A stretch of DNA of 64,000 nt from a virus (taxonomy: Duplodnaviria; Caudoviricetes), in IMG/VR virus record IMGVR_UViG_3300026270_000004, positions 1 through 64,000 of that record; one strand, 5' to 3'. Below, piece after piece: positions 13,301 through 51,300 of the stretch. The notes beneath the pieces are model-generated. The model had not been told where the DNA came from, did not search any database, and saw nothing but the letters and a program-made list of their open reading frames with translations. Both the position numbers and the translations under genes were made by a program. The first letter of the stretch is position 1. Each line of letters starts with the position of its first letter.

Positions 13301-16300
13301 CTGTCTCTCCAACAACGAAAGGTGTCTCGTTAGTGTTAGGATCAGCAGTAGATGACTTAACTATCTCAATAACTTTAGGTACGATGTAAGTAGATACATT
13401 CACACCATCGAAGAAAGCATAGACTCTTGTGCGAGGCTTCATTCTCTCAACGTTGAATGCAACGTTACGAGATCTAATCCAAGGAATCGCTGTCTCAGAT
13501 AAGGTAAAGTCACCTAAAGATTTTCTATCAATCTTGGGTACAACTTTAGTCCTGATACCTTGTCTTGCTTGGTTGTTAACAACCCTCCAAGTTCTTCTTT
13601 CGTGGACAAACAGTGCCTGTCTTCCTTGACCGTGACCCAATCTACCGAGTCTACGACCACCTGCACTGAATGATCCTGATCTATTTCTAAACTGTGATGT
13701 TGAAATTAGTGATTCACCTGTCCAGTTAGTCTTCCATGATCCCCACTGAATAGGAGCAAATCCATCTCCATCAACCTGCATATCTCTTGATACAGCAGAG
13801 AAGTCTCCTTCTACATTCTCCACCCTAGCTGGCATACGCTTAGTATCCACCCAGTCATCAGATGCAGGAGTTAAGTCAACACGTCCAATGAATGTGAAAA
13901 CGTTGAATGGGTTTACATTCTCTGTCCTAGAAGCATATGGTTGTGTAATGATTGCATGGTCTTCCCAAGGTAGGAGTGCCATGTTACCAGGAGTCTTAAC
14001 AATATTGCTAGAAGCAGAAGTGTTTAACTGAAGAGGTACGTTAGTTGTGAAGTGAGATGGTCTTAGATGACCTTCCTTAAAGTCAAGAGAGCACTTGTAG
14101 TCAACGTTAAGTACGTCACCAACATTATGATCAGTGAAGTCATCAACAACGTAACCATTCTTAAGTCTGTCAAATCCGTTGTCATCATATGTCTTAGTGT
14201 TTTCTGCTTGGACTTCAAGTAGAGATAGAGAAGTATAGTATTCTACATGCTCTAGTCTTGTCTCAAGATCACCAATATCTTTCATCGTATAACGACGAAT
14301 GATCTCAGGGTTAATAATGATATCTCTTTCTACATCATAAACATATGGACGGTACTCGAGTTGTGCTAATAACATAGCATTATCGATCTCGTCAGGTGGT
14401 GGAAGATCCTCAGATGATACACCGTTGGTTATCTTAAGTTGATTATCATGTGTTAGATATAACTTATCTGCACGTGGGAGATAGTATGAATAGTCCATAC
14501 GAATCTCTGTATTAACCTTCGGTATATCGAAGATAGTAGATCCACCTGCACCACCAGAGGTATCAAATGTCCTTGCAGCAAAGTCTAATGAAGCACATTC
14601 TACTAAGAATGGGTTAGATACTGTACCATCTCTAGATGCTAACTCACCTACACCTGGACGGAAATCAACTTGGTCTCTTATAAAGTTAATAGATCCATCT
14701 AGTTTATAAGTTGGAATCTCTGAATAGTTGATACCAGTATATGACTGAGATGAGAAGTAATCTCCAGATGATTCATGTACGAAGTAGTCAAATATAATTA
14801 ATAGTTTTCTAATTGGAGGTGTATACTGTGGGTATCTTGTGATCTTAGATACGTCATAGAAGTGTGCTTTCTGCCCTGCTTCTAATGTATACTGAGTGGT
14901 TACAACCTTACTACCTCTAGTTACAGATCCATCTGCGTCATCGATGATAGCAGATAATGGGTTACCATCGTCATCTTGGCCATCAATAGTCTCACCAGCA
15001 GCAAATGGAATCTCATTCAACTGCACAACATACAATCTCAATGTTGAGTTGATGAATTGAATTACCCTACCACGTGCTCCAGAAGTCTTACCAATAACAA
15101 CAGATCCGTTATCAAAGAAGGTAGATTCTGTTAGTACTAGGTATGGTGGAGTGGCATCACTATCATTCTCAGACTCATATACAGCATGTATATTGTATAC
15201 ATCATTCAATGCGAATGAGATCTCTTCATCCTCAATACGTGTGCCATACAAGTTACCATAGGCAAGACCGTATTTTGGTTGGTCATTATTAATTCTTGTG
15301 CGAAGGACATTAAGACATCTCATCTTAGCAGCAGTCTTAATCTTCTTCGATACAATATTCTTAGATATCAATGCTGTTAACTTAACTGTGTTAACATTTG
15401 CTAGACCATCAATAGTAACTGACTGTCTGTCAGCACCAAAGGTAACTGTTAATGTACCTGCTTCATTGAGTGCATCAATGTTAAGGTTATCACCAACACC
15501 CCATGCAGATCCTGATTCAGCAATGATAGTTAAGATATAGTTTTCATCATCTAGTGTTGCAAACTGCTCTGATTCAGGTAGTGAAACAGTAACACCACCA
15601 GAAACAACAGTCTTATTATTAAATGTCCTGTATACAAAGAATGATTCGTCAGCGATTGACTTCATAGATGTCCTAGGACAGTCAATTGATAATTCACCAT
15701 TCTGATAATCCTTCTGGAAGATGAAAGGACGCATTCTAGCCAGTGTGTTTACCTCACCGTCGGCATTTCCACTACCCTTCTTAAGTCCTGTCTCTACTAG
15801 TGCATGCTGTGTAAGGTAGTCAAAGATATACGACGACTGACCTGATGCAGCATTTTGTGCTGTAGTATTAATAGCAGTAGGATCTACTCTCATAATTCTA
15901 AGAGTATTCTCACCTTCGTCTGAAGTATTAGTTGATGTTACTACTTCACCTGGACGTAGGTCTTCTGCAAACTTAGTTCTAAATCCTTCTAATCTACCGT
16001 TAGTAGTGCTGTCAATAGTAACAGTTGCACCTTCAATGACTCTTACATCATTGAGCATCCAGTTACAACCAAATACTACAGTACCTGATCCAGCAGAGTT
16101 TTGTCTACCAAGACACTTTCTAGTATCAGTTAGGTTATATGTGTGTGCTGCCTCTAGTGTACCAACAACTCGGCCATCACGCTCGATAACCTCGCCATTT
16201 ATGAAGGCACCTGAGACTTGCTCAAGCATACAGTCTACTGAACCTGGTGAAGATCCTTCATCACCAACGTAACCTCTTGCTCTAGAAGTCCTTCCTACTA

Positions 16301-22713: not shown

Positions 22714-22720
22714 TATTTAG
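22714..22720 (-). promoter_or_regulatory. Late promoter variant CTAAATA
   Basis: tatttag on the + strand about 20 nt upstream of the gp9-like start. The same variant occurs at 24321 and 55544. Confidence 0.5.
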
Positions 22721-24309
22721 GTGCCATCGTAAGTTTGTAATGTAGAGTCGAGAGTAGATGAGGTGCTATCGAATCTATTATTTGTGCTTCCACCGTCTCC
22801 TTGACCAGCAACTGTCAATGTTACTGCGTTAGAATCTAGTGGTGAGTTACCTGCTGCTACAGGTGCACCCACAGGTCCAGCGATCCTACAACGGAATTTG
22901 TAACCAGTCATATATGAGAGTGCAGTAACTGAGTATGTGTCAGTTGTTGCACCAGTTATAGCAGCGAATGCGAATCCACCATCAGTAGATCTATACCACT
23001 GATATGCCACAGGTCCGTCTTCTGGTAATACCTCTTTCTGAACTGTGAATGTAGCAGTCTGACCAGCATTCACTGTTGCATTCTGTGGTTGTAAGGTAAA
23101 TGTTAGGGTTGGTACCACTCCACCGCCACCAGCACCACCGCCACCAGCAGGAGGAGCCTCAACAGTGAACGTGGTGTCTATAGTTTCTCTAGTCTTTAAT
23201 CCAATAATGAATGGAAACTTAGTAAGATCTGTGTTAGTTTCATCTACTGTCAGGAAATATGCATATGTGCCATCCTGATACTCAGGTGTAATAGCAAATC
23301 TACCATTATGAAGGTCTAGATCACCAGTCCCTTCGACATATTCATAGTCCTCCATAAGAGTACCAGCTGGAGGATTATCACTTGTGTTACCATAATCAGG
23401 TCTTCCTGCTGCTTCTGTGTCTTTTACAGCATAACCTGTCCTCATTGTCCTAGTACCACTCAAATTATCGAATGGTACGTCATATCCATAAGGTCCATAG
23501 ATGGGAAATCCATCAAATGCTATACCAATTATCTTAGAATGACCGTCTGGGTGACGAATATTGTCTCCATTATACTGAGTACCACCATAATAATCGTTAT
23601 ATGATGCCATAGATGACCCTGCTTTCCAACAATCTAGGAAATGTGGGTCATGATAGTGGTAAATTCCACTCTGTTCTGGGTGTCCACCACAATTATCCTC
23701 TCCAGAGTTAACAAAAGTCAGATCACCAGCAGCAACCCAACTAAAACCTGATGGTGGATTGAGTCCAGCACCAGCAGAAGGGTTAAAAATAGCAACTCCA
23801 TTACCAGAAATGCCAATTTGACCTAGAGGAGTGTCACCTCTTCCATTTCTTTGGTCAAAATACTCCATTGTACCGCTAACAGGAGTAATTGCTTGGTCTG
23901 CTACAATGAAATCTAGTGTAGTATCAGTAGATAACCAACATTCACCATCAATTGAAGTAAATGTTGTGCTTCTAAAGATGAATTTTTGCTTTAATCCATC
24001 ACTAAAAACAACCATTATCTCATCACTATCCCTAATGTTAGGGGTTGGACCAGTAAAAAGAGTTAAGTCGTTTGCTGAGATTGTTGCTCTTCTAACAAAT
24101 CCGTCATGCGTATATCCATTATTATCAAATGTGCGAGCAATTCCAAATGTTCCTCCACGGTATAGGAAATCATGATCCCAGTCCTTCTCCTGAATAGTAT
24201 TAGGGTTATTATCGTTAGGAAACGCACCAGGAACCACAGGAGCAGGGAGGGCATCCGATGCTACTGTGATTATATTGGTTGCGTTATTATAGGAAGCGGT
24301 TGCTGCCAT
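22717..24309 (-). CDS. YHYH-domain protein with C-terminal Ig-like domain (530 aa)
   Basis: GIYHYHDP, HSKIIGIAFDGFPIYGPYG and GDLDLHNGR...GTYAYF motifs. The C-terminal QPQNATVNAGQTATFTV...YQWYRS...YKFRC is Ig-like. Confidence 0.85.
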   Translation of the reverse strand: MAATASYNNATNIITVASDALPAPVVPGAFPNDNNPNTIQEKDWDHDFLYRGGTFGIARTFDNNGYTHDGFVRRATISANDLTLFTGPTPNIRDSDEIMVVFSDGLKQKFIFRSTTFTSIDGECWLSTDTTLDFIVADQAITPVSGTMEYFDQRNGRGDTPLGQIGISGNGVAIFNPSAGAGLNPPSGFSWVAAGDLTFVNSGEDNCGGHPEQSGIYHYHDPHFLDCWKAGSSMASYNDYYGGTQYNGDNIRHPDGHSKIIGIAFDGFPIYGPYGYDVPFDNLSGTRTMRTGYAVKDTEAAGRPDYGNTSDNPPAGTLMEDYEYVEGTGDLDLHNGRFAITPEYQDGTYAYFLTVDETNTDLTKFPFIIGLKTRETIDTTFTVEAPPAGGGGAGGGGVVPTLTFTLQPQNATVNAGQTATFTVQKEVLPEDGPVAYQWYRSTDGGFAFAAITGATTDTYSVTALSYMTGYKFRCRIAGPVGAPVAAGNSPLDSNAVTLTVAGQGDGGSTNNRFDSTSSTLDSTLQTYDGT

Positions 24310-27300: not shown

Positions 27301-30300
27301 TTGAAGTCATACAATACACTCTTAGTATATTCACGAACTCTTGCAAGACAGAATAGGAGATGAGTCCTTGTTACATCCTGATATGCAATGAAGTTACCTT
27401 CACCATCAAACCAGTCTTGTGTCATTCTGAATGCACCAGCATTACCCTCAGTAACTAAGTCATATCTTATTGCTTTAACACAATCATTAGCAAAGTCAAT
27501 AGTTAAGTTAGTATTTGGATAGTTGATCTGAGTCTCAGCGAATGCTCTACCAGCAATTGCTTGCTTATTGAAGAGAATCATATTAGAAATTCTCTTACTG
27601 TTATTGGTTCCATTACCGAGTGCATCGGTAAACAATTCCATCAATGTATCAAGTGCTGATGTTACGTTATAGCAAGTACCTGACTGGAAGTCAGCATTGC
27701 TATTGTATGGGAATGTCTTGGTTACAGTAGACAAGAAATTAGTCTGGACATTTGCTGCCTTATCGATTGTCTCGATAAAGATATCAGCTAATGTGTTAAT
27801 AGCAGATGCAGTTTCTTGACATGTCTGATTCCATGAACCAGCATTACCTTGACCACCATTTACAGTGTCATAAGTAACAGTCTTATCTCTGATTACAACG
27901 TCAGGAGTATACTTGACGGGCCAAACGATTGGTAGTGTGTAAGATCTACCAGCAACATTATTAGGATTGCTAATAGCATCTGATACTAGTGCCATTAGAG
28001 TACCAATTTCACTCTCTACACCAGAACCTTCGTTACCTGTATAATCCTCTGAGACTCTACGTGCACGATAGTAATCTAAATCTGTCCTCAATGGATATGC
28101 ATAAGACAATACAGATTGGACAGGTAAGATCTTACCGTCAGCATAATCTGTCACACGAGGATATGTGTGGTTAGTAGCATTCTGGTCTTGACTACATGTG
28201 AATGTTAATCCATTAGTGTCAATCGTGATAGCATCATCTGTGCGTAATGAGTGATTAGCAACAGTCAATGTTAGTTGACCTGTAGTAGGCTCATAGTATG
28301 CATCTGTTGGTGTTAATGTTGTGCCATCGTTAGTATTAGTAATACAGTTAGATGCAGCAGATACGAAGTTATGCTTATAGTTACCACCCTGTATAATACA
28401 TCCTTTGTTTGCACTTACGAATGTATGCTGATATGTCTTACCAGCTGGTGATACACCTACGTTAATTCTTATCTTACCATCTTGTATTCTAATTCCTTTT
28501 TCAATACATGATTTGAATACATGATTTCCTAGGAATGTTGATGGGACACCTTTAAGTACTTGGACATCAAATTGAGTTGTAGTTACATTAGATACTGCCA
28601 ACCATTCATTACTTGCATGATCTGTAGGTCTTGGATATAGGTGAGTAGATCCATAAGCATCTAGATCACAATCAAATCCTAAAGCATAATCTTGGATGTA
28701 AATGTAATCATTTGCTTTCCATATACCATTAGTCTTAGCAGATACAAATGAGTGTTGATAATTACCACCACCTATAACAGCACCAGGTAATGCACTGACA
28801 AATGTATGATCGTATAGATCAGCAGTAGCAGCGATATTTACATCAACTGTAATCTTACCACTCTGTCTGTGTAAGGTGTTATTCTTAAAGTATTCAAATG
28901 TATGAGTGTGGTTACCACCAGCAGTGATAGCATTATTTGTAGCAGAAGCAAATCTGTGTGTATGGTTACCAGCAACAGTAGATCCTACATTAACAGTAAT
29001 TGTAGAATTCTTCTTCTCTAATCCATCAGTAACAGCACTTACGAATGTGTGTGCGTAATCACCATTACCTCTAATTGTTCCTCTGATAATTGCACCAGTT
29101 TCAATTCTCTCAATTTGATGAGTTGTAGTGTTAGAAGAAACACCAACATTAACTGTATATGTGTTTGCATCTACAACAGTAAGAGTTAACCAATCACCAG
29201 ATGCAGGGTCTTGTGCTCTAGGATAAGCATGCTCAGTTGCAAAACTATCTTCCTGACACTTGAATACAAAACTCTCATTAACTATCTGAATCTTGTCACC
29301 ATTTGAGAATGGGTGAGCACTGTGAGTAATTGTTAATACACCTGTTCCTGGGACATAAGATGCTGTTGATGGAGTGAATGCATTTTCAGATCTTACAAAT
29401 TGGTGAAGTGTTGTGTTACTTGATTTACCAACATGGACTGTGATTGTATCAGCAGTAGCAGCAAGAATAGGTACTGAAGTATTATAGAATGGGTCAGTAG
29501 ATCTTGGATAAGCATGCTCACTACCGAAGCTGTCAGCATTACACTTGAATACTAGTGACTCTTCCTCAATGTAAACTGCTTCATGTGCAAACTTAAGACC
29601 GTTAGTAACAGCACTTACGAATGTATGAGGTGAAGTAACAGACTGAGGAGCAGATGCTAATACCATTACATCGAATGTATCTTCAGTGATGTTGTATACC
29701 TCTAACCACCTATCACTTGGGTAATCAGTAGCACGTGGGTATGTATGGTTATCAGTAGGATTATCAGCATTAGCAATACCAACGTTAACTGTAATTGTAG
29801 TAGCAGTTGGATTCAACACTGCGAGTGCTGTGCCAGATGCAGGGTCAGTAGCACGTGGATATGGATGGTTACTTCCATTATTATCAGCATCACAAGTGAA
29901 GGTAACACCACCATTAGCAATGGTAACTGTATCAGCAGTTGTTAAACTATGTGATCCAATTTCCAATACCAACTCACCTGTATTAGGATTATAAGTTGTG
30001 CCAGCAGCAGCTGTGTATGTTGTAGTGCCATCGTTAATAGCATTGTTAGTGCCACTTACGAAACTGTGAGTACCAGTAGATGCAGAGCAGTTGAAGGTTA
30101 TAGAGTTATCGTCAAACTTAACTCTGTCTCCAATCTTCATTCCATGAGAAGGAACTGTTGCTGTTAATACACCAGTTGTAGGATTATAAGCAGCATCAGT
30201 AATTGTAGTTGCACCACCACCCTTGTAGTTGTGTGGTCCAATGGTGAGCACCATATCACCTGTAGTAGGTTCAAATGTTGCATCAGAAACTAGGTAGTTA

Positions 30301-33300
30301 GCACGAGGTGTTGATCCTACATTAACATCAAATGTGTTACCAGAAACATTAGAAACTTCTAACCATTTCTCTGAAGCATAATCTGTAGGTCTTGGATAAG
30401 AATGATTAGTTGCATTGTTATCCATTGCACAGGTCATTACTAGAGAATGATCAGCGATTCTAATATGGTCACCATTAGCAAATGGGTTGTTAGCAACTGT
30501 TAGTTGTAAGTTACCAGTAGTAGGATTGTATGTAGCACCAGTTGCTGAGTACTTAGCATGACCAACTGCCTTAATTTCGATAGCATGATCATGTGCTCTA
30601 TCTCTCTTCGCCTTAAGTCCGTTAGAAGCGAATGATTGGAAACTGTGTGTGAATGATCCACCAGATCTGATTGATCCTCTCTTAATAGCACCAGTCTTTG
30701 CTCTCTTAAATGTATGAGTAGATGTGTTAGTAGAAGGAATAGTATCTAATACTTGGACTCTAAATGTGTCAGTAGTTACGTTAGAAATTGTTAACCACTT
30801 ACCACTTGCAGGATCACTAGATCTTGGATAGTTGTGCTCAGTAGCATGATCATCCTTACCACATGTGAATACTAATGAGTTATCAGCAAACATGATTTGC
30901 TCACCATCACTCATTCCATGATTAGCAACAGTAACAGTCATAAGACCAGTACCACCACTATATGAAATTGCAGTTGGTGTTACACCGACGGCAGGTTTGA
31001 ATACGTGAGTTGTAGTGTTAGAAGATACACCAACGTTAACAGTAATGGTACTATCATCAACAGCAGTTACAGCAACAGCATCTTGATATGCTGGGTCGTC
31101 ACCAGATGCACCACTCTCTCCATTTGCACGAGGATAGAAGTGATCAGTCTGATAGTTATCTAATGCACAAGTAAAGCAGAATGCTTTATGGTTAATGTAT
31201 ACACTGTGAGCAGTTGTAATACCGTGGTCAGGACCAACAGTGATTACCATTACACCTGTATTAGGATTGTAATCTACATTCTGAGGATCGTAACTTACAA
31301 ACTCAGATTTACCAACGAAGATCTTGTATGTGTTAGCATCGATATACTCGATAGGCTTCCACTTACCACTAATAGGATCAGTAGATCTAGGATAAGTCTT
31401 GTTAGTGGTACTTCCGTCCATTGTGCAACGCAAGGTTATTGCATTGTCATCAATCTTAACAAGAGATCCTTCATCTAATCCATGAGCATTAGAAGTAATT
31501 GTTAAGTAACCTGTTACTCCATCAAATACAGCATTTGTAGGAGTGAAGTTATCGATTGTAGTCCTTGGATATGCATGAGTAGATCCATAGTTATCCTGAC
31601 TACATTCCATTGTGATACCACCGTCAGCAATCTGAATGCTCTGACCAACCTTAAGTGGGTGAGTGCCAATCTCAATCTCTAAATGTCCTGTTGTTGGCTC
31701 GTAAGATGCATCAACAGGTGTGTATTGGACAGCAGCAGTTGTGCCTACTTCAACATCAAAACCATCTGTAGATACGTTAGAAATTTGTACCCACTTACCA
31801 CTGATAGGATCTGTGCCTCTAGGATATGCATGACTGCTAGAATCATTATCCATATCACATGACATGGAGAATGCATAATCTTCAATCTTAATGTAGTCTC
31901 CATTTGAGAATCCATGCTTGGATACTGTTAGTGATAAAACACCAGTTGATGGTACGTAACTAGCAGCAGTTGGAGTATGTCTTGTAACACCGTCATCAAT
32001 AATTCTTAGAGACTCATTGTATGCAGGATCAGATGTTCTAGGATATGCATGGTTAGTAGAATTACCATCCTTAGAGCAAGTGAATGTTAAAGCATTCTCA
32101 GGAAGTTTGATACTGTCATTACCCTTCATTAGAGTAGCAACAGTTATACTTTGTGGTCTAGCAGATACGAATGTATGAGTTGTAGTATTAGAAGAAGGTA
32201 TGTTGAATAAGACTTGAATATCAAATGTATCCTTAGTTACATTCTTAACTATCATCCACTCATCACTATATGGATCTGATGCTCTAGGATATGCATGATT
32301 AGTTTGATTACTATCCTGTGTGCATGTGAATGTTACAAATCCATCATCCACCATAATTCTGCTGCCATTCTTAAGACCATGATTAGCAACAGTCAATGTC
32401 ATAATACCTGTAGAAGGAGTATATGCAGCATTGGTTGGTGTTAGTTTTGCAGGAGCAACAAACTTATGTTTGTAGTCACCACCAGAAGCAACAGTTGCTC
32501 TGGTAATAGCACCAGTAAGAGCACTTACAAATGTGTGAAGAGTCTGGTTAGTTGATGGGACGTTATCAAGTACCATGACATCGAATGTGTCATCAGTTAC
32601 GTTCTTAATAGGAATCCACTTATTGTTTACTGGGTCACTAGATCTAGGATAAGGATGGAGAGTTTGGTTAACATCTTGTAAGCATGTGAATACAAGTGAG
32701 TTAGTGCCAATCTTGATACTCTCATCTTCCATGAATCCATGATTAGGAATTGTGATGGTCATCCAACCTGTTGCTGGATTGTAATTAACAGCAGTTGGAG
32801 TATATGATTCACCAAGTGCATGGAAGGTGTGGTTATATGCACCACCTGCCTTCACACACATACCATTACCACTTACGAAACTGTGAGCAGTTGGATGAGT
32901 AATCTGACCATTACCAATATCTAATGTGATAGTACCAGTCTGTCTGTGTAATGAGTTATTTTCACAAGATACAAATGTATGATCGTAAACATCATTAACA
33001 CCAGATTTACCTACATGGACAGTGAAACTTGTGTTACTTGCATTAGAGATAGGTAACCACTTACCGAATGTAGGATCTGTCCTTCTAGGATATGTGTGGT
33101 TAGTAGCATTCTGATCCTTAGAGCAAGTGAATGTGATTGCATCCTCATCAAACATTACAAAGTCATTTGCTTTCCAAACAGCATCAGTTGCCACAGATTG
33201 AAGCACATGAGTTGTAGTGTTAGAGATAGCACCTTCACCGAAGAAGTTACCAACGTTAACATCAAATGAGTTACTACCAACATTAAATGCCTTCAACCAC

Positions 33301-36300
33301 TTACCACTAGCAGGGTCAGATGATCTTGGATATGCATGATCTGATGATTGACTATCTTCATCACAACGGAATGTAAATGCACCATCAGCAAGAAGAAGCA
33401 TATCACCATTCTTAACAGGATGACCATTAAGAGTGATTCTCATGGTACCTGTAGAAGGAGTGAATGTAGCACCACTAGGTGTCATCGTGCTATGGTTACC
33501 AAAGCTATTGCTCATGGTAACTTCCATAGTACCAGCAGTAGGATTGTAAGTTATATTTGTAGGACTATGTGAAGTCTTACCTACTTCATGGATAGGAATA
33601 TTTGTATCGAAGAAGTAATCCTTCTTATGAGTAATGCAGTTTGCATCAGCACTTACGAAAGCATGAATTGTAGTATTTGTTGAAGGTACTACATCTAATA
33701 CTTCTACGCTAAATGTATGAGAAGTGACATCATGAATCATTATCCACTTACCACTTACAGGGTCAGTAGATCTTGGATATGTGTGGTCGGTAGCATTGCC
33801 ATCCTTAGCACATGTGAATGTCAAGGAGTCGTCAGCAATCTTAATGTAAGTATGTGGAATGAATCCATGATTAGGAACAGTAAACTTAAGATGTCCTAAA
33901 TTAGGATCGTAAGATACATCAGTTGGTGTATGAGTTGTACCAGGTCTAGGATATGAATGGTTAGATGAATTTCCATCAGCACCACAAGTAAATGTTACTG
34001 CACCTTCGTCTAGTCTGATAGAATCTCCAGCATGACGTAGAGCACCAACAGTAGAAGTTGAGTAAGTATGATCGTAAACACCACCACTTACAATCTGTGC
34101 TCTAGTAATGCAGTTACCAACAGCACTAGAGAATAGATGAGTTGTTGTGTTACTCTGAGGAATAACTGTGTTAACTGTAACATCGAATGTGTCTTCAGTA
34201 ACACCATGTACTTTCAACCATGATCCAGAAGCAGGATCACCAGGACGAGGATAAGCATGAGTAGTCTGATGATCATCTAAAGCACATGTTAATACTATGC
34301 CATAATCATCGATCTTAATCATGTCACCATTTTCAAATTTATGACCAACGATTGTTATTGTCATAACACCTGTAGTAGGATTATGATTAACGTTTGTTGG
34401 AGTATATCCTGGGTTAGGAATGTAGGTATGGACACTCTGATCTGAGATCGCACCATCACCAACGTTAAGTGTTATAGTGCCATCTCTCTTAGTAATTCCA
34501 TTTGCAACAGCAGACGCAAATACGTGAGTTGTTGTGTTAGTGGAAGGAGCATATGATAATACTTGTACGTCAAATGTATTAGCAGTTAAATTAGATCCTA
34601 ATACAGGTTGCCATCTATTTGCATATGGGTCAGTTGCACGAGGATATGCATGATCACTACCTTGTCCATCTTGATCACAACGGAAGACTAATGAATTAAT
34701 AGCAAACTTAACATCATCACCTTCTTGCAATCCATGAGGATTAGCAGTAGTGATGGTCATTATACCTGTAGTTGGATTATATGATGTACCACCAGTAGCA
34801 GTCATTGGTGTGCCATCGTATAGCACTTCTATTGATGTGTTATAGAATGGGTCATTACCATTAGCACGTGGATAATAGTGGTAACTATTATTAGCATCTA
34901 AGAAACATGTGAAGTTAATAGACTCAGTTGCTAGTCTTACACTTTGTCCTCTTCTTAGATTGTGATCACCAATAGTAGCAACTAACTGACCGTTAGCAGG
35001 AGTAAATGTAGCAGCAGAAATTGTAAATGGTATTGTAGGTGTTCTACCAACATATAGATCGAATGAATCCTTAGAAACGTTTCTAACATCCATCCACTTA
35101 CCACTCATCGGATCTGTTGATCTAGGATAAGCATGAGTTGTTGCATGGTTATCTTGACTGCATGTGAATGTTACTCCACCGTCAGCAATCTTAACGTAAT
35201 CTCCTTCAGCAAAGTTGTGGTCAGCAACGGTCAATCTCATTAAACCAGTTTCACCGTTAAATTCACCACCAGTAATATTATGAATACTTTCTCTACGGAA
35301 GAAATGCTTTCTATCAAGTGTCATACTTAATAGACCATCAGCAGGAGTAAATGCAGCACCAGTAAGACCGTATGTTACTTGAGGTGTTGTACCAACATTA
35401 ACAGTTATAGAATCTGAAGTAACAGCAGTAATTGCTATTGGCTCATTATGTACTGGATCTTTAGGTCTTGGATATGAGTGCTTAGTAGCATGGTCATCCA
35501 TATCACAAGTAAATGTCAAGCTTCCTTGTGACAGTTTGATATGTGTTCCAACTGCTAAACTATGTGATCCAATTGTTAATGTAAGAGCACCAGTAGTGGA
35601 GTTGAATGTAGCAGCAGAAGGTGTAAATCCTTTGATTGGAGATGGACCAACATTAACAGTAAACCAACCATCTTCCTGATTAGACTCAATAACATCTAAC
35701 CACTTACGTGTAGCAGGATCAGAAGATCTAGGATACACATGATCACTATAATGGTTATCCATTGAGCAAGTAAATGTCATGGAATTTTCCATGATCTGAA
35801 TCTGCTCACCAGGGGCAATCTTATGTCCAGATACTGTTAGTTTTAAAATACCAGTATATGCATCATATTCAGCATAAGTTGCAACATGGGTAGAAGCACC
35901 AACGAAACGATGCTGACCGATCTCCATTTCTAAATGACCAGTATTCTGATCGTAAGTAGCATTAGAAACGTCATACTCAACTTTAGGAGTAGATCCAACG
36001 TTAACTGTAAATAGATCCTTACTCTCAACAGATTCAACTAATAACCACTGATCACCAGCTGGATCTTTTGGTCTTGGATATCCATGCTTAGTAGCATTAT
36101 TATCTTGAGCACATGTGAATATTAAAGATCCATTTTCAATTCTTATTTGATCACCAGTCTTAAATCCGTGGTCATCAATCTTAATTCTTAATACTCCACT
36201 ATCAGGATCGTATGATGAATCTTGTGCAGTATGAACTGAATGCGATGACATTCCATGATCAGGAATAGTCAATCTCATAATACCTGTATCAGGATTGTAA

Positions 36301-39300
36301 GTAGCATCAGTTGCCTTATGATCAGTACCGTATGTTTCTAATACTTCAATAGTAGTATTACCAGCAGGATCACCAGATCTAGGATAAGAATGAGTTGTAG
36401 CATTATTATCTTGATCACAAGTGAAGTTAATGGAGTTGGTCTTCAATCTAAGGAATGTACCCTCTGTATGATTGTGTGATCCAACATTCATTATTAAATC
36501 ACCAGTACTGGAATCATATGCAGCAGATGTGCAGTCATACTTGATAGTAGGAGCAGGACCAACATTAACTGTAAATGTATTAATGTTAGCAGGCTCACCA
36601 GCAGCAATACTGTCTCCACCTTGGATACCATATCCAGAGTAATCTGTTCCAGCAAATTGTCCAGGAGCAGAGTAAAGACCTGTATATCCACCACCTTGAG
36701 TTTCAGCAGATCCAACAGATACACCGTCAATCCATAACTCAACTCTACCTTTACCAGCACCTTGGTTACCACCAACGTTGATCTGCCATACTAATTCATG
36801 ATCTCCATCATCGAAGTAAGATGATAGGTTGCTGATCTGTAGATCAAGCATTGCTAATCCACTCTCAGTATGACTAGCACCACCAGAATATGAGTTAGCA
36901 CCATTACCAGCACGAAGTCTTAAATATGTGCCATTATCTCTAATACCTAACCATGAACCAGCACCAGTTCCACCTGCTTCCCAGATGGTGCCATCAATAG
37001 GACTAGATGCTAATTTAGCAATACAACGGAATACAGCATCTTCAGTAGTTACTATACCAGTGCCACTATCAGTTGTAGAAATCTTATCTTCACCAACCTT
37101 GAAGGATCTAGTAATAATATTATTATCTTCACCTTCTATTGGACCATCTTCATCAGAATTGAATAGTGAAGTTACAGGTCTTGGGACAGCATTATAGAAT
37201 CTTTGATCTACTTCCCAACCAGCATTATTACTGATTACCTGACCCTTCATTGCACGGATTGCAAATTCCTGTGCTTTATTAATAATCCAAAGAGATTCAG
37301 TAGGAGCGTTAGTAACGTGATCTAAGTTACCATTATAATTGGTATAAAACTCAGATGCATACTGAAGCATATTAGTACCACCATACTTGAGGTTGAATAT
37401 CATCGCTCTCAATATGTCAGTAACGTCATGCACACAGTTAACAGGACCGCCAGGAATTGCTAAGTTAGGGAATTGGACTAAACCAGCAGCAACTGCTTGC
37501 TCTGCAATGTATCTAATGTTTCCATCGATAGCATCACCACACTCAGCAAATAACTTATCTTTAGGATTCTGATTGTAACTTTCAACATTACTTGCTCCAT
37601 CACCTTGCTCCATATCATAATCTTTACCAAATGCATTACGCATTGTGCAAGTTAAGATATCTCTTAGAAGCTTAACTACAGTAATAGATGCTTCCCATTC
37701 AGTCTCAATATGCTTAAGTGAATTATTTTCTGTCTCAACATATAATGCAGCAGCATCCCATACTTTCTCATTACAGTCGAAACGTATGTCATGAACCATT
37801 GCTTCGATCATGTCTAAGACATCATCTTCACAGTTAACATGACCATCAGGAATCATTAGGTTTCCATACTTAGAAAGGTCATTCATTATGCTGACACATT
37901 CTTTAGCGATGACTGCTCTGTTATTCCAGATCATATCAGCAGCATCAAGATACCTATCATTGTTTGCTCTATTCTGGTTGTTAGGATATCCTTCAGTATC
38001 CTTAACGATTTCAGAATCTCTATATGCTGCCTTAGAAGTCCAGATAGGAGTGTAATATTCTTCATGTGCCCATGCAGCAGCATTTAGTGCATTACCATCG
38101 TTATCTAATAGTGCACCAGCAACTTCACCAGGAGACATTAGAAGGTTATTAATTGCCTTCATAGCAAGCATCTTAGTATAATCAAATGCATCATTCAATG
38201 CAGCAAGCTCATGCTCAACATGGAGGATATTCTTTTGATCATCAAGATACTTGTCAATAACAGCTTGAGTCTGGAATGTACCACCAGTAACTAAGTCAGC
38301 AATTACACCAGGAATAATGAAGTCCTTGATATCTCTCTCACAATATGGTTGACCATATCCAGGCATTTCAAGGAAGTCAAAGACAACACCATCAATAGTT
38401 TTCTGATACTTGTCTTGAATATATCCAGCAACTTCTTCTGCAATGTAATCTCTATTCTTCCAAAGTTGGAATCCACCTTCTCTGAATCTCTGATCATTAG
38501 GTGCAATAACCTTAAGAAGATCAGTCATCAAAGTATCAACTTCATCTTGAACTGCCTGTGAAGCAGGAGATGCAAAGTTGTTAGGTATTCTATATCTTGT
38601 AGTATATGTGCCTGTTAGAGTTGCACTAGTTGTAGTGATTATTTCCTTAGTAAGTTTTGCTACTTCATTCCAAACATATAGAGATTGTAGAATCTCTTCT
38701 CCAATGAAGTCTAACTTACCACCAACTGTTAGATAAGTCCTAGCAGTATAGATTGTATGATAGTTACCACCTTCTCTAAGGTCTTTAATTAGAGCACCAA
38801 GGATATAGTCCTTAGTATCTCTGATACATGTATCAGTACCACCATAACTGTTTTGAGCAGGGACATCACCACGAATGTTGAAGTCACTAAATGCTGCCTT
38901 CATTCGACCCACTGCTTCTTCAGCAATGTAAGCACCGTTAAGGTCGATGATATCAGCACAGTCTCTATATTCCTGACGACCTAAATCAACGTCCTCAGCA
39001 ATAATTGCTAATCCTTCATAATCGATTCTCTTAGAAGTTGTAGCAGATGATCTCTGACCACTATACTTAGCGTATACTTCCTCAGTAGACAATATAAATG
39101 GTGCTTCACCATCTAGACCAAATACGATATTAGGATTATTATAATCTACCTGAGTAGGTGCAGTGAATCCAGTTGTATAAGCACCGATACCCTTCCAGAT
39201 GCAAACGTTATCAACGTGTCCAGACCAATGAGTAGCACCGTTAAAGTCTTGACCAACGTAACATGCAGCATAGAGGTAATCGTTAGTATCAGCAACGTTT

Positions 39301-42300
39301 CCACCAAGTTGAGCACCGTTAATATACAACTGAGTAATTCCGTTGTTTCTGCTAACTGCAATATGATGCCATGTACCAGTTGTAGTAACTACGTTACCAC
39401 TGGTTAATAATTGAGTAGTGCCATTATAAACCTTAATTGCTTGTGCATCTTGGACAATTCTTAAACCTTGAGCAGCACTTAAACGACGGAAGTCAAATAG
39501 TGTTTGCAGGGTTGTATTTGTAGCAGAACGGAACCAACCTTCAATTGTGAAGTCTCCAGTTCCGAAAGCATAGTCATAAGAAGCAGGACTGCTTAATGCA
39601 CCATTAGTAGGAATATAGATGGATTTAGTACCACTTAATTCTGCTTTCTTAACAATTACACTTTGAGTGCAATTAGTGAAAGTTAGAGTAGAGTTAGTGA
39701 TATATTCACCTGCTTGGAATACTCCAGTCACAGGACCAGCAAACAACCACTTAAGACCAGAATTAACTCCAATTGCTTGGAATAGTGCTCCAGAAGTCAT
39801 ACCCTTGATCTGGTCACCCATTACGAATAAACCAGTTGACTTATCCTTATAACCGATCTTAGTTGTCCTGATAGTTTCATTTGCTTCAAATGTACCATCA
39901 GTAACAGCAAGAGCATTAACATTGGTTAAATTACCTGCTGTCATTGCAGTTGTAGCAATCGCTCTCAGAGTGTCAATATAAGACTTAACATTGGCACAAT
40001 TGTTGATATCTTGGTTATTACCAGATGCATAGTTAAGATCGTAGTTATTAGCAGGAGCAACACCACCAGTGTAAGTAGTAGGATCATTAAGGTTATATCC
40101 CTGTCCAGAGAGATCCTTCCAATACATTAGGTTATTAATCGCTCTATGCATGAATGTGCCAGCAGCAGTAAATGCATGAACTGCTTCTGCCTCTTCTCCA
40201 ACAATACCGTTAGTTAGAGGTGTGCCATCTTCATTAAAGAATTTTTTAGTAAATTCAACTGTATTGAAGTTACCACCTTGTCCAACATCATTAGCAATAG
40301 CATCAATCATGTATCCAAGGTCTCTTCTGCACTTCTCTTGGTGTGGTGAGTATGTGCCACCTGCTTCGACAGGAAGATCATTTAGACTTGCATTATTCAA
40401 TGCTTCATCGATAAACTGATGTAGAGTTGTAATTGCTGCTTGAACGTCTGAGCAATTGTCAGAATCAGTATTATCAGCATTAGATCCAGCAGTACCGTAA
40501 GGATTGCCAGGTGAAGGGTCAGCAGTGATTGTAAGGTCTTGATATGCAGTCCAAGAGTCACCAGAGTTAACAGCACTGATTGTTCCTGAATATCCGTTTG
40601 CAATCGCAACATTCATGCGATCTTTTGCTTTTTCGTAAGCATACTTGGTTTCTGCAACCTCAGCATTAACATAAGTGAATGTTCCGTTTTCGTCGAAGTA
40701 TTGTTGGACAAACTTACGAGCATAGCGGTTTCCACCAGCATAGATGTCTATAGAAATTGCATCGATGAAATATTCAAGATCTCGCTTACATTTCGCATCT
40801 GAAGGAATTGAAGAAGAAGGATATTGCGTTTTCATGTCATCAAACGCCATTCCAGCAATCATTGCCTTATTCTTCTGAATCATCCTGTAAGCGTCTTTAA
40901 ATCGACTCCAGTTGTTAGTAATAACGTCGGAGGGGAAATAGTAGTCTGGATAGTCAATTGCAATTGCTGCTTCTGCAAAATCGATGATTTCTTGCTTATT
41001 ATTAGAAATATTACGTCTTGCATCAAGGAATCTGTTTGCAGCGATTCCGTGGAAGGTAGAAATTGGATTTCCGTAAAATGCCTTCTTATTACGAATAACC
41101 ATTCCATCAGTAAGAGTACCACCACTTAATTGACTATAAGTGACCTCAGTAGTCCTAACTTGCTCAAAATTCAAGAAGTCAGCATTAATTCTATTCTCAG
41201 AGTTATAGAGCTCAGTAGGAGTGATAGAAGATTGTGAAATATCATCTAAGATGACATTGGGGTTAGTTAGTGAAACTAAACGCTCAAATAGTAATCCAAA
41301 GAATGTTGTTCCCTTGTTAATGATTAATTCATCAACAACTTCACCATTAATAGGATCTTGATAAGGAGCAATGTATGTAATCTGGCCTGCAATTCCTGAT
41401 GAGGCAGAATAAATGTACTCGTTAAGTTTAAAGTCAAAGATACCAGTCTCAAACCTAGGAGTACCTGAAGTCTTACTTACAACCACTCTATCAGTTACAT
41501 TACCCTGATTATCTACGTTAGTCTCTTCAATGTATGCAGTGTCACCATCAAGGTTGGTAAGTGATTCACCAAACTCAAATATGGTAGGAGTATTAAGAGG
41601 GGTAACTGACTCGATCAATGCAGCGAATAATTCACCTCTCTTGATTTGCTCATTAAGTTGGAATGTGCCACTTACGTTAATAACGTCAATGTGGTTAGTA
41701 CCTGAATCAATAACAGTACCAATGACATCTGATAGAGCACCTTGGACTTGTTGTCCTAATGTTGGGAAGATACCATAGTTAGATCCACCACCATCATTGT
41801 AAAGTGCAATTCTGTAAATGGTAGTAGGAGTAACAGATAGAGTCCTATAGTTAACCTTAGATGGTGGTTTAGGTGGCTCAGCAAATACTAAGTTACCACC
41901 AACGATCTGATAAGAAGTACCAGGTGACTGAATGATACCATTCAGAGTTATCATCAACTGGTCTTGCTTAACGATTACAGTTTCACCCTCAACAGTAATT
42001 GGGAATGACTTCTTAATACCATCAAACTGATCTTGGACGTTATCCATCTTCTTAACAATAGAAGTTAAGATTTCCTCAGAAGATGTTAGACGCTTCTTAC
42101 GGAAGAGAACCTCAGTATTGTTGTAGTCAGTATAGATTGGTTGAGCAGCACCGAATGATGTAATCTGGTTTACATTACTATAGTTGTTAATATTAACCTT
42201 CTTAGTAAACTCAGTACCAATACGTCTTCCAGATACGTCCTTACCACCAGTCAGTTGTAACTGACCAAACATATTGAAACCAGCAGGGTGGTTATTTTCT

Positions 42301-48300: not shown

Positions 48301-51300
48301 GCCTGAGAGAAGTTCCAGTTATCTGGTAATGAGTTAAACTGAGGTCCAAGGATATATGGGAATTCAGCAATACCTGCATCACTAGCATCAATAGTTACAA
48401 AGTAAGCATAGACTCCTTCTGGGAAGTCAGGTGTCTTACAGAAACGACCATTATAGTTGTCTAGGTCACCAGACTGGAAGTCATAATAGTAGTCATCAAT
48501 AAATGTACCAGCATCATATGTTGCAATAGGAGGACCATCTACCCTAGAAGGGTTAGGATTAGTAGCAGCATCGAATACAACATTTTCCTTCAATTTAAAG
48601 GAAGTACGCATTCTTCTAATACCACTATTCTGATCAGTAGGATCAATATATCCATAAGGACCATATATTGGGTTACCATCAAATGCCCAACCAATAATAG
48701 GTGAGTGCTCAAAGTTAGCAGCAACTTCTTGGAATTGCTGAGTAACAGGGTTTAGGAATACGTTATCACCAACAACATATCTTAATTCTTTAGGATCTGA
48801 TAGGTGAGCATATTCACCACCAAACTGGTTGTTATATCCAGTAAATACATAACCTCTTGCAAAGTCATAATTGTCTACTAATTCATATTGAAGGTTTTTA
48901 TTCCACTGATAGACTGTAGGTTGGAATGACGCTAATTGACCCACTGCTTCGAGTCTGACAGTCGTTAAACCTTGTGTATACCCAATACCCTTGTTGATAA
49001 TAGTTACACCTAAAACACGACCTTTATCTTCTCCAATTGTGCCGATAGTTGCTTTAGCAATAGCACCAAATCCATCACCATTAATAATGATGTTAGGAGC
49101 AGTTGTATAGGATTCACCAGAGTTAATAATAGCGATAGATACGATTCTGCCATTAATAACGATTGGTTGTGCTAGAGCACCTTCACCAGAGTTAACCTTA
49201 ACAGAAGGAAGTGAAGTATATCCACTACCAAAGTTAGTGATGTTTACACTGGAAATTGGACCTCTAACGTTAGCAGTTGCAGTAGCACCAGTACCACCGC
49301 CACCTGTGATAGAAACTAGGGGTTGTGTAGTATAATTCGTTCCTGGTTGCTCAACTAGAATTCTTGTTACTCTACCACCAGTAATAACTGCTTGTGCAGT
49401 AGCACCTGATCCACCACCCCCAACAATCGATACAAGAGGTGATTCTGTGTAACCAGTACCTTCAGTAACCATATCGAAGGAGGTTAGACTACCATTAACG
49501 ACAACCTCTGCTTCAGCACCAGTACCACCGCCACCAGTGATCTCTACGTTGGGTTTAGCACCAGCATCGTATGATTCACCAACATTGGTAACTGCGATGC
49601 TAGTAAGAGGTCCATACTGGATAAATTCTCTAGATTTGTAAGACCAGATAGAAACACCGTTTACCCAAGCACCAATTGGTGTTCCTGGGTCAATTGTCTT
49701 TCTTTCGGAAATAGTTTGGACTAATCTTGGAAATCTAAGTAATTTTCTTTGGTTTCCTGGAATTAGAGCAGATCCTGTAAATGGACCTATTTTGTAGTTA
49801 GGAAGTCCAGATGCAGCGACATAAACGTAATCATCGTTGAAAAACGAGTTTTGGATGTTTGTAGTAAACTCAGATACAACAGAATTGATAGAAGCGATAT
49901 CTGACTTACCTCTATTCAAGTCAACCGATAAAAGGATGTTTCCTTGAGGTAAAATCTCAGTAGGAACGTTTATCTGATATGAGAAGGTAAATTGGTCAAT
50001 TCTTGATGTTACAGTGAATGTACCGTTGTAAACAACTGGGTTTGCACCATATATCGTAACTTGGTCAGAAACTAGCAAACCATGAGGGTTACCGCAAACT
50101 ACAGTCGCAGTCTGGTTATTAACACCACCAGGAGTGATGCTATCAACTTGAATCAGTTTCTTAACGTTATATAACCAAGATTGGAGTCTTAACTCCTCAG
50201 CAGTCGATCCAAGGTTTGCAACCTTCAGTTTATCACCACCAAGGTAGTAACTACCAGTATCGTTTAGTACTGTGGTACCTGCTTCAGCAATACCAAGAAT
50301 CCTTAACTTACATTCCTGTGCAGTGCCTCTGTTGACATAAACGAAGATATCGGACTGAATTATAGTACCAGGATCCCAATCTTCGACAATTCCATTCTTA
50401 GACCTAGTACACTCGATGAACTGGTTAAGGGACTTCTCCTTATACTGGACTTGCTCTACATCATTGATTCTGATAGTACCATTTCTCTCGGGCCATCCAA
50501 TTGTACTGTCAACCGTAATTATCTGCCCAGTAGTGGTTAAAGGCTCAACTAGACGAGTCTTATAAGGAATAATGAAGTTACCAACTAAGGTTTCCTCAGA
50601 TATTGCCAATTCATAGATTGTGTCAGTACCTTCAATGATAGTAATGACGTTTTCGATCAATGCAGACGCAGCAGTAACACTAGTGTCTACTTCATCAGCA
50701 TATTGGTTAACTTCAGAGTCAATTAGGTTTGAAGGGTCACCTTCAAGCAATTCTGCTCTTAGAATGGTGTCTACAACCCAAGTTGCATGAGATGGACTTA
50801 TAATTTCATCTTTAGGGTAGTAAAGATCAACATCTTCACCAAATAGGATTTTAAAGAGATATTGGGTTGCTAACTTCGTACCTTTTGAGATATAGAAGTC
50901 ATTAATGTTTTTAATAACCTGAACTGGGTTAACTTTACCAAAATCGATATCTAAGGTTGGAAGATACTGTCTTCTAAACTTATCAAAGACTTCTTTAATG
51001 AATAAAGAGTCAAGGTTGGTAACATGAGCACCAGCAACGTGATTTGACTGTCTTAATGCTGCTTCTCCTGCATATATCTCATTATGGAGGTTATCATACC
51101 CTACAGCACCAGAAACGCCTCTGGAGCATCCTAGGAAGGCACTAGAGGCATATCCTGATCCATATTCCAGTATATCGAATCCTGTAACCTGATCAAACCC
51201 AACATCCACAGATGCCCTTGCTGCTTTTGGTTCAGCAATGTAAATCTTGGGTGGAAACTCTGTAGAGTAACCAGATCCAAAATTAGTGATATTAATATCT

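Follow-up and report, generated by a model that had tools for sequence, protein, structure and literature searches.

Phycobiliproteins (PBPs) bind and orient their bilins through a Cys, an Arg and an Asp (Cys84, Arg86 and Asp87). Here we describe relatives of these antenna proteins in the genome of a marine T4-like cyanophage. The window, a stretch of 64,000 nucleotides, covers positions 1 to 64,000 of the IMG/VR virus record IMGVR_UViG_3300026270_000004 (Duplodnaviria; Caudoviricetes), a record of 101,470 bases estimated to be 56% complete. A single open reading frame (ORF) of 9,560 aa on its minus strand (window 24324–53006), predicted to encode a gp7-type baseplate wedge protein, holds seven PBP-like copies, P1–P7.

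The closest described counterparts are the PBP beta subunits (CpeB, CpcB and cryptophyte beta chains). Between helix B and the C-terminus their fold is that of the phage domain (Z 15.8), and a Cys-x-Arg-Asp motif stands in the same register; the phage domain also has a long G–H loop with a Cys directly ahead of helix H, which on structural grounds would correspond to beta-155/165. In contrast to them, the phage domain lacks the N-terminal X-Y hairpin and is nested in a 9,560-aa virion protein, and the sequence identity is only 15–21%. The bilin domain of ApcE is similar in another respect, as it too is a PBP domain built into a large multidomain protein, with an insert in a loop; its structure (4xxi_A) is the second-best structural match of the phage domain (Z 14.0, rmsd 2.0 Å). 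ApcE needs no separate lyase to attach its bilin, a precedent for autocatalytic loading, and its attachment Cys is located elsewhere. However, ApcE works in the cellular antenna and has a single PBP domain, in whose loop no second PBP domain is inserted. PBP-type globins that bind bilins outside antennae are also known, namely the BBAGs of heterotrophic bacteria (PMC10151467) and photocobilin (8j2w/8j2y). These domains can serve in sensing, and photocobilin matches the phage domain with Z 10.0–10.3, but they occur singly, as soluble proteins of cells, and form no part of a virion. Phages are mentioned in PMC10151467 only in connection with PcyA and PcyX.

Two phage proteins are relevant as well. 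T4 gp7 resembles the giant protein in its gene position after gp6, and PHROG families annotated as 'baseplate wedge subunit' (2885 and 708) match the N-terminal third of the phage ORF. The cyanophage protein is, however, about nine times longer, and T4 gp7 has no PBP-like domains. The other is PhiCpeT of cyanophage P-HM1, which, in 2017 work by Gasper et al. in the Journal of Biological Chemistry (JBC), reportedly binds phycoerythrobilin tightly and does not transfer it to the host beta subunit. The source phage likewise has a compact CpeT-like gene (152 aa), but such a protein is a candidate partner enzyme rather than the domain itself, and the link between the two is one of co-occurrence and synteny. 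The roles of phage cpeT, pebS and pcyA have been described as 'unresolved' (PMC3037559).

Homology of the copies to phycobiliproteins

The seven copies are true relatives of the PBP family, as the sequence-only reading of this DNA had proposed. Their helices are those lettered B, E, F, G and H in the globin-like PBP fold. The Pfam profile PF00502 (Phycobilisome protein) matches residues 3900–5300 of the giant protein with 29.6 bits and an E-value of 8e-7 (cut-off 22.2). P2 on its own scores 23.0 bits against the curated cut-off of 22.2 and P6 reaches an E-value of 0.047, but five of the seven copies give no match alone. A six-frame search of the whole record with PF00502 returned nothing at E ≤ 1e-3 in any one stretch, the signal being divided among several copies.

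Profiles of the copies were compared with 177,635 PDB sequences, and the only significant matches were PBPs. The E-value improved with profile depth, from 1e-4 (7 sequences) to 9e-6 (39) and 2.8e-7 (44 sequences; 175 PBP sequences at E ≤ 1). In these alignments the Cys, Arg and Asp of the repeat pair with Cys84, Arg86 and Asp87 in C-phycocyanin alpha, the very correspondence put forward from the sequence alone; the GGN turn falls on AGG, the loop length agrees too, and helix B of P1 aligns to C-phycocyanin alpha residues 34–64.

Structure prediction is consistent with the profile searches. AlphaFold modeled the core alone with a pLDDT of 81.8 and the full P2 domain with a pLDDT of 86.9 and a pTM of 0.86. 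Foldseek with these models did detect a globin-like fold: PBPs fill the top ~48 places, and with the full domain all of these are beta subunits, the E-values being modest (3e-3 to 0.03). In VIA-align, the best match is the C-phycoerythrin beta chain 5aqd_M (Z 15.8, rmsd 2.7 Å over 146 residues, model 1–176 against chain 26–184), followed by ApcE and the allophycocyanins (Z 13.8 and 13.2). The top 8 are all PBPs or ApcE, whereas ordinary and sensor globins score at most 10.8.

The domain starts at the equivalent of PBP chain residues 26–32, no X-Y hairpin was found, and none of 44 leaf domains (those uninterrupted by another copy) has extra N-terminal helices. Since the fold match begins at chain residue 26, the domain is a PBP without the N-terminal X-Y hairpin, which pairs alpha with beta. 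Because the hairpin is missing and the domain is embedded in a virion protein, neither alpha/beta pairing nor assembly into (alpha-beta)3 rings is expected.

Nested copies and their bilin-site residues

The copies were segmented with a domain hidden Markov model (HMM), A3 (positions 1–158), from which the E-values below are taken; all coordinates are on the minus strand. Every motif quoted in the sequence-only reading was found in the one frame of the giant ORF and at the place given there. Its count of seven repeats also stands, though not as a plain series, the copies being nested. P2 is complete and uninterrupted (40377..40916, close to the 40380–40910 proposed; residues 4031–4210; HMM 1–158, E 2.6e-63) and consists of helices B, E (CKRD, Cys4073), F and G, a long loop, Cys4185 and helix H. 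It is flanked by the two parts of P1: helix B alone lies before it (40929..41036; residues 3991–4026; HMM 4–39, E 2.5e-6), and the core E-F-G (CRRD, Cys4226) with Cys4337 and helix H follows (39921..40361; residues 4216–4362; HMM 33–158, that is, without helix B, E 9.3e-39). P3 is again complete (38496..38975; residues 4678–4837; CIRD, Cys4727; HMM 4–154, E 4.3e-18), and its helix H starts with Ser instead of Cys.

The next three copies (residues 4838–5262) have helix B and a core but no helix H in place. They are P4 (37980..38495; residues 4838–5009; CERD, Cys4889; HMM 3–127), P5 (37629..37961; residues 5016–5126; CEDD, Cys5059, with Arg replaced by Asp; HMM 3–111) and P6 (37221..37535; residues 5158–5262; CVHD, Cys5191, with Arg replaced by His; HMM 11–116). 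After P6 come ~3,100 residues of other modules and then two orphan pieces, each a linker with a Cys and helix H. The first (27753..27917; residues 8364–8418; Cys8396; HMM 113–155, E 5e-6) would, judging from the balanced order of the elements, be the closing helix of P5, and the second (27597..27725; residues 8428–8470; Cys8445; HMM 118–158, E 8.8e-6) that of P4. The closing helices of P4 and P5 would thus lie ~3,300 residues downstream of their domain bodies. A Cys-less H-like helix near residue 8335, spotted by eye and below HMM detection, would close P6. The terminal helix that the sequence-only reading saw starting with Cys in four copies is helix H, with the Cys at residues 4185, 4337, 8396 and 8445. 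The last copy, P7 (27384..27590; residues 8473–8541; HMM 9–83, E 1.1e-8), is degenerate. As had been noticed, it lacks the conserved Cys; the aligned Arg and Asp are missing too, and in the alignment its own Cys comes seven residues later.

The same organization recurs in the homologues. When helix B, the CxRD core (c) and the Cys-led helix H are marked along many of these proteins, balanced strings result, for example B B B c H c H c H, and HMM segmentation, which uses no regular expressions, gives a matching nested order. In S-PM2, segmentation yields three orphan B helices, one complete domain and three B-less units of core and helix H; in another genome (G005) the nest is six deep. Because orphan B helices are followed by one complete domain and then by B-less cores, the copies are nested and not tandem, with the B–E and G–H loops as insertion sites. 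Simple tandem repeats, in which the Cys-led helix would be an alternative N-terminal helix, were also considered and were ruled out by the element order and the HMM segmentation.

No positions of the family are better conserved than the three that contact the bilin. Over 1,385 copies from 151 proteins, clustered at ≤ 50% mutual identity, Cys is kept in 96%, Arg in 92% and Asp in 99%, and the exact C-x-R-D motif is present in 1,278 of the 1,385 copies (92%). In the window, P1–P4 have the full triad, P5 and P6 only Cys and Asp, and P7 none of the three. Exactly one Cys is found in 79% of the copies, in proteins with an overall Cys content of 0.7%; an intradomain disulfide is therefore ruled out as a general reason for keeping the Cys.

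Some copies have a second Cys. In the P2 model this is Cys157, directly before helix H (158–177), and if the alignment is extended without gaps from its last pair (model 176 to chain 184), this Cys corresponds to about residue 165 of C-phycoerythrin beta, the T-type (CpeT) lyase site. On this extrapolated structural ground, the second Cys would correspond to the beta-155/165 position. It is kept in four of the seven window copies (P1, P2, P4 and P5), and a Cys-led helix H occurs in ~15% of copies across the family, in 60 of the 151 proteins.

Genomic setting and company of bilin genes

By gene order, the genes for a gp5-like hub protein, PAAR, gp25 and gp6 lie upstream of the giant ORF, and further matches to wedge and structural families lie downstream. 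This order of neighbors puts the ORF where a T4-type baseplate cluster has gp7, in agreement with the sequence-only reading. PHROG matches over the full length of the ORF are to virion structural, baseplate wedge and tail-fibre families, among them PHROG 701/18802/2885 ('virion structural protein / baseplate wedge'). Both position and PHROG similarity thus identify a putative gp7-type baseplate wedge protein, with a predicted location in the virion. A complete sister genome (G001) encodes a homologue of 9,914 aa.

Other modules surround the PBP-like copies. A Laminin_G_3/concanavalin-like domain (PF13385, E 7e-16) is located between P1 and P3 (39189..39569, minus strand; residues 4480–4606), and a YHYH domain (PF14240, E 2.6e-27) in the N-terminal third (residues 1396–1541; window 48384–48821). 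A 530-aa protein encoded downstream (22717–24309) has matches to the same PHROG families along a similar stretch. Between P6 and the orphan H helices, small modules follow one another in a long row (window 28110–36581). A Cys...H-x-YPR motif recurs in them, and they match PHROG 1276 and 5342 and, weakly, the Pfam families E1_FCCH and Cthe_2159.

Among the phage records searched, we found the domain to be restricted to cyanomyoviruses. A profile search of 1.84 billion representative sequences retrieved 1,219 proteins (clusters at 50% identity), 330 of them at E ≤ 1e-30. With few exceptions the proteins run to thousands of residues, and up to 35 copies occur in one protein. Searches of 50,697 phage records with tblastn and three queries matched 327–390 records, all from Synechococcus or Prochlorococcus phages or marine viruses, except for one Pelagibacter phage record, which was matched by the whole 2,927-aa protein P0006, a protein that carries other modules too. 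Megablast of the region against the phage records gave no match. The label 'Candidatus Nanopelagicaceae' on two homologues, which have 65% identity to S-RSM4, does not amount to evidence of a cellular homologue. Proteins P0074, P0179 and P0208, assigned to a 'Candidatus Nanopelagicaceae bacterium' metagenome-assembled genome (MAG), share 65% identity with the tail-fibre protein of S-RSM4 and come from contigs of 2–8 kb, which are probably cyanophage DNA binned into an actinobacterial MAG. Automated Pfam annotation already puts PF00502 on many homologues, such as the 'tail protein' of S-RIM32 and S-H9-2. We found no paper that discusses the domain in cyanophage virion proteins, subscription journals being outside our coverage.

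The sequence-only reading suggested looking for the enzymes of bilin synthesis and attachment in the company of the domain. For cpeT this was borne out: the record encodes a compact CpeT-like protein (152 aa; PF06206, 29.8 bits; G000 98183–98641, minus strand) ~45 kb from the giant gene, and in other genomes cpeT co-occurs with the domain. A link to ho1, pebS or pcyA is not supported, as neither a heme oxygenase nor a bilin reductase is present on the 101-kb record (56% complete) and elsewhere such genes occur with or without the domain. The sister genome combines its giant homologue with ho1, two bilin reductases and a CpeT-like gene.

We scored the co-occurrence of the domain and CpeT (PF06206) over 26 genomes. 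Both are present in 17, including the source phage, and both are absent from seven (P-SSM2, S-SM2, S-SSM7, P-TIM68, S-CRM01, S-TIM5 and the podovirus P-SSP7); cpeT without the domain was found in none of the 26. P-SSM7 has a weak CpeT-like frame beside pcyA (NC_015290, 13428–13775; E 1.6e-3 to the CpeT-like protein of the source phage), directly upstream of this phage bilin reductase (13936–14535). In S-PM2, Syn1 and four further genomes (G002, G003, G004 and G006), a cpeT with a strong score lies 1.2–2.8 kb upstream of a PBP-array gene, on the same strand. A Fisher test, uncorrected for kinship, gives p about 5e-5 for the co-occurrence, which we do not take as strong evidence because a gp6 tree of 24 genomes shows clade structure. 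In this tree, one clade (support 100/98) consists of the four marine myoviruses that have neither the domain nor cpeT, and a second (100/99) of the six genomes in which cpeT is adjacent. Two forms of CpeT follow the phage clades as well. The full-length form (E 1e-18 to 1e-40) adjoins a fibre-type PBP-array gene, and the compact form (E 1e-5 to 1e-11) is encoded far from a gp7-type giant gene with few PBP-like copies.

Several features near these cpeT genes deserve mention. Outside the window, an ORF of 222 aa that immediately precedes the CpeT-like gene of the source phage (L001:1934–2602, minus strand, equal to G000:C1:98628–99296) resembles, judged by eye, a 2OG-Fe(II) oxygenase. An oxygenase of this kind is encoded between cpeT and the PBP-array gene of S-PM2. 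In G002 (the contig of L046), two CpeT-like genes are present (2240–2668 and 108907–109329). The first has a 3,662-aa PBP-array ORF closely downstream of it. The second is found ~8.6 kb beyond the point where the PBP-like matches of a 5,705-aa PBP-array ORF stop, and it may border directly on the end of this ORF. For S-PM2 (NC_006820, 14347–19174), RefSeq places 16 tRNA features inside the 3,779-aa coding sequence, which bears a tRNA-style locus tag; this looks like a coordinate error in the annotation.

Possible roles of the domains

Our preferred reading is that the domains receive bilins while still inside the infected cell and that the virus particle then carries them; belief and doubt are evenly balanced here. 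During assembly in the infected cell, an intact copy would bind a host- or phage-made bilin through a thioether at its first Cys, attached either spontaneously or by a host S/U-type lyase, and loading of the second Cys, in the copies that have one, would fall to the compact CpeT-like T-type lyase that the phage itself encodes. Each particle would then leave the cell with a few dozen bilins on its baseplate or fibres. We estimate ~40–80 bilins per virion, an amount that would be nearly invisible in ordinary preparations. More speculatively, the bilin could be a light sensor gating adsorption or, alternatively, could staple an exposed helical bundle covalently or protect it. The fullest version, in which virion-bound bilins are combined with a CpeT-like lyase loading the helix-H Cys and with a photoreceptor that makes adsorption light-dependent, is in our view unlikely.

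Light-dependent adsorption of cyanomyoviruses is independent of host photosynthesis and has been ascribed to host receptors or phage tail fibres (PMC6628666). According to the adsorption data of that study, P-HM2 and S-PM2, both of which have the domain, need light for adsorption, and P-SSM2 and P-SSP7, which lack it, adsorb in the dark, P-SSM2 better in light. A sensory role of the domain is suggested by these four phages only.

A number of observations weigh against virion-bound bilins and their loading by the phage lyase. Within the window, two copies lack the Arg and one the whole triad. T-type lyases serve beta-155 rather than Cys84, and only about 15% of copies have the second Cys. The profile of the C-terminal half (A4) found PDB sequences only at chance level (E > 2); since this half alone finds no PBP, there is no sequence proof that the second Cys is beta-Cys155, and the T-type-lyase site proposed in the sequence-only reading is upheld by the fold alignment but not by a sequence match. 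The association with cpeT has its own weak points. In S-ShM2, the domain is present and CpeT is below Pfam detection. Because of the clades in the gp6 tree, the co-occurrence amounts to two or three independent events, and the adjacency of cpeT could date from one transfer in which a phycoerythrin gene cluster came from the host. Genes for ho1 and bilin reductases do not track the domain, and P-SSM2 and S-SSM7 have them without it. Finally, to our knowledge, no coloured cyanophage particles have been reported.

It is also possible, though we lean toward doubting it, that the module is free of pigment. The PBP-derived helical bundle would then be a building block of long nested fibre or baseplate proteins, with Cys, Arg and Asp kept for the fold, for an inter-domain or inter-subunit disulfide, for a metal or for another ligand. 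The domains keep company with lectin-like, carbohydrate-binding-like and beta-barrel modules of the sort usual in adhesive virion proteins, they number up to 35 per protein like a scaffold unit, and triad-less copies persist (P7 and two copies in L044); moreover, the pigment in the virion is something we infer. However, a pigment-free module leaves unexplained the top conservation of three bilin-contacting residues over more than 1,000 diverged copies, as well as the restriction to cyanophages and the cpeT association, and one lone Cys per domain speaks against a disulfide within it.

Considerably less probable is an intracellular decoy or mimic, in which the domains would soak up bilins or host lyases, or dock to phycobilisomes. 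The domains do derive from host antenna proteins, and phages manipulate phycobilisomes, as is described for viral NblA (PMC12695635). Yet the gene sits within the baseplate cluster, between gp6 and other wedge and structural genes, its PHROG matches are virion structural, tail-fibre and baseplate families, and the domains are without the hairpin needed for pairing with PBP subunits. A decoy inside a 9,560-aa structural protein would be an unlikely design, and nothing points to the role of host-protein mimic that the sequence-only reading had offered as an option. Chance or convergence, that is, an unrelated four- or five-helix bundle carrying C-x-R-D, is scarcely credible: single-copy scores are marginal, most copies escape Pfam alone, Foldseek E-values are modest and helical bundles often give middling Z-scores, but every significant match in three independent profile searches is a PBP, E-values improve with depth, motif, loop length and GG turn are all in register, and a Z of 15.8 stands well above those of other globins.

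If the particle does carry bilins on these domains, the result would be a pigment-bearing or light-sensing virus particle without precedent, and in the latter case the first light sensor built into a virion; phage cpeT would gain its missing substrate. Several questions become directly testable: why most T4-like cyanophages carry cpeT without cpeESR or a known acceptor, what accepts the bilin held by the phage lyase, and how the adsorption of some cyanomyoviruses needs light but not host photosynthesis. Even without pigment, a host antenna protein used as a nested block of giant virion proteins would be an unusual case of domain capture, and the family is large, with its 1,219 clusters at 50% identity.

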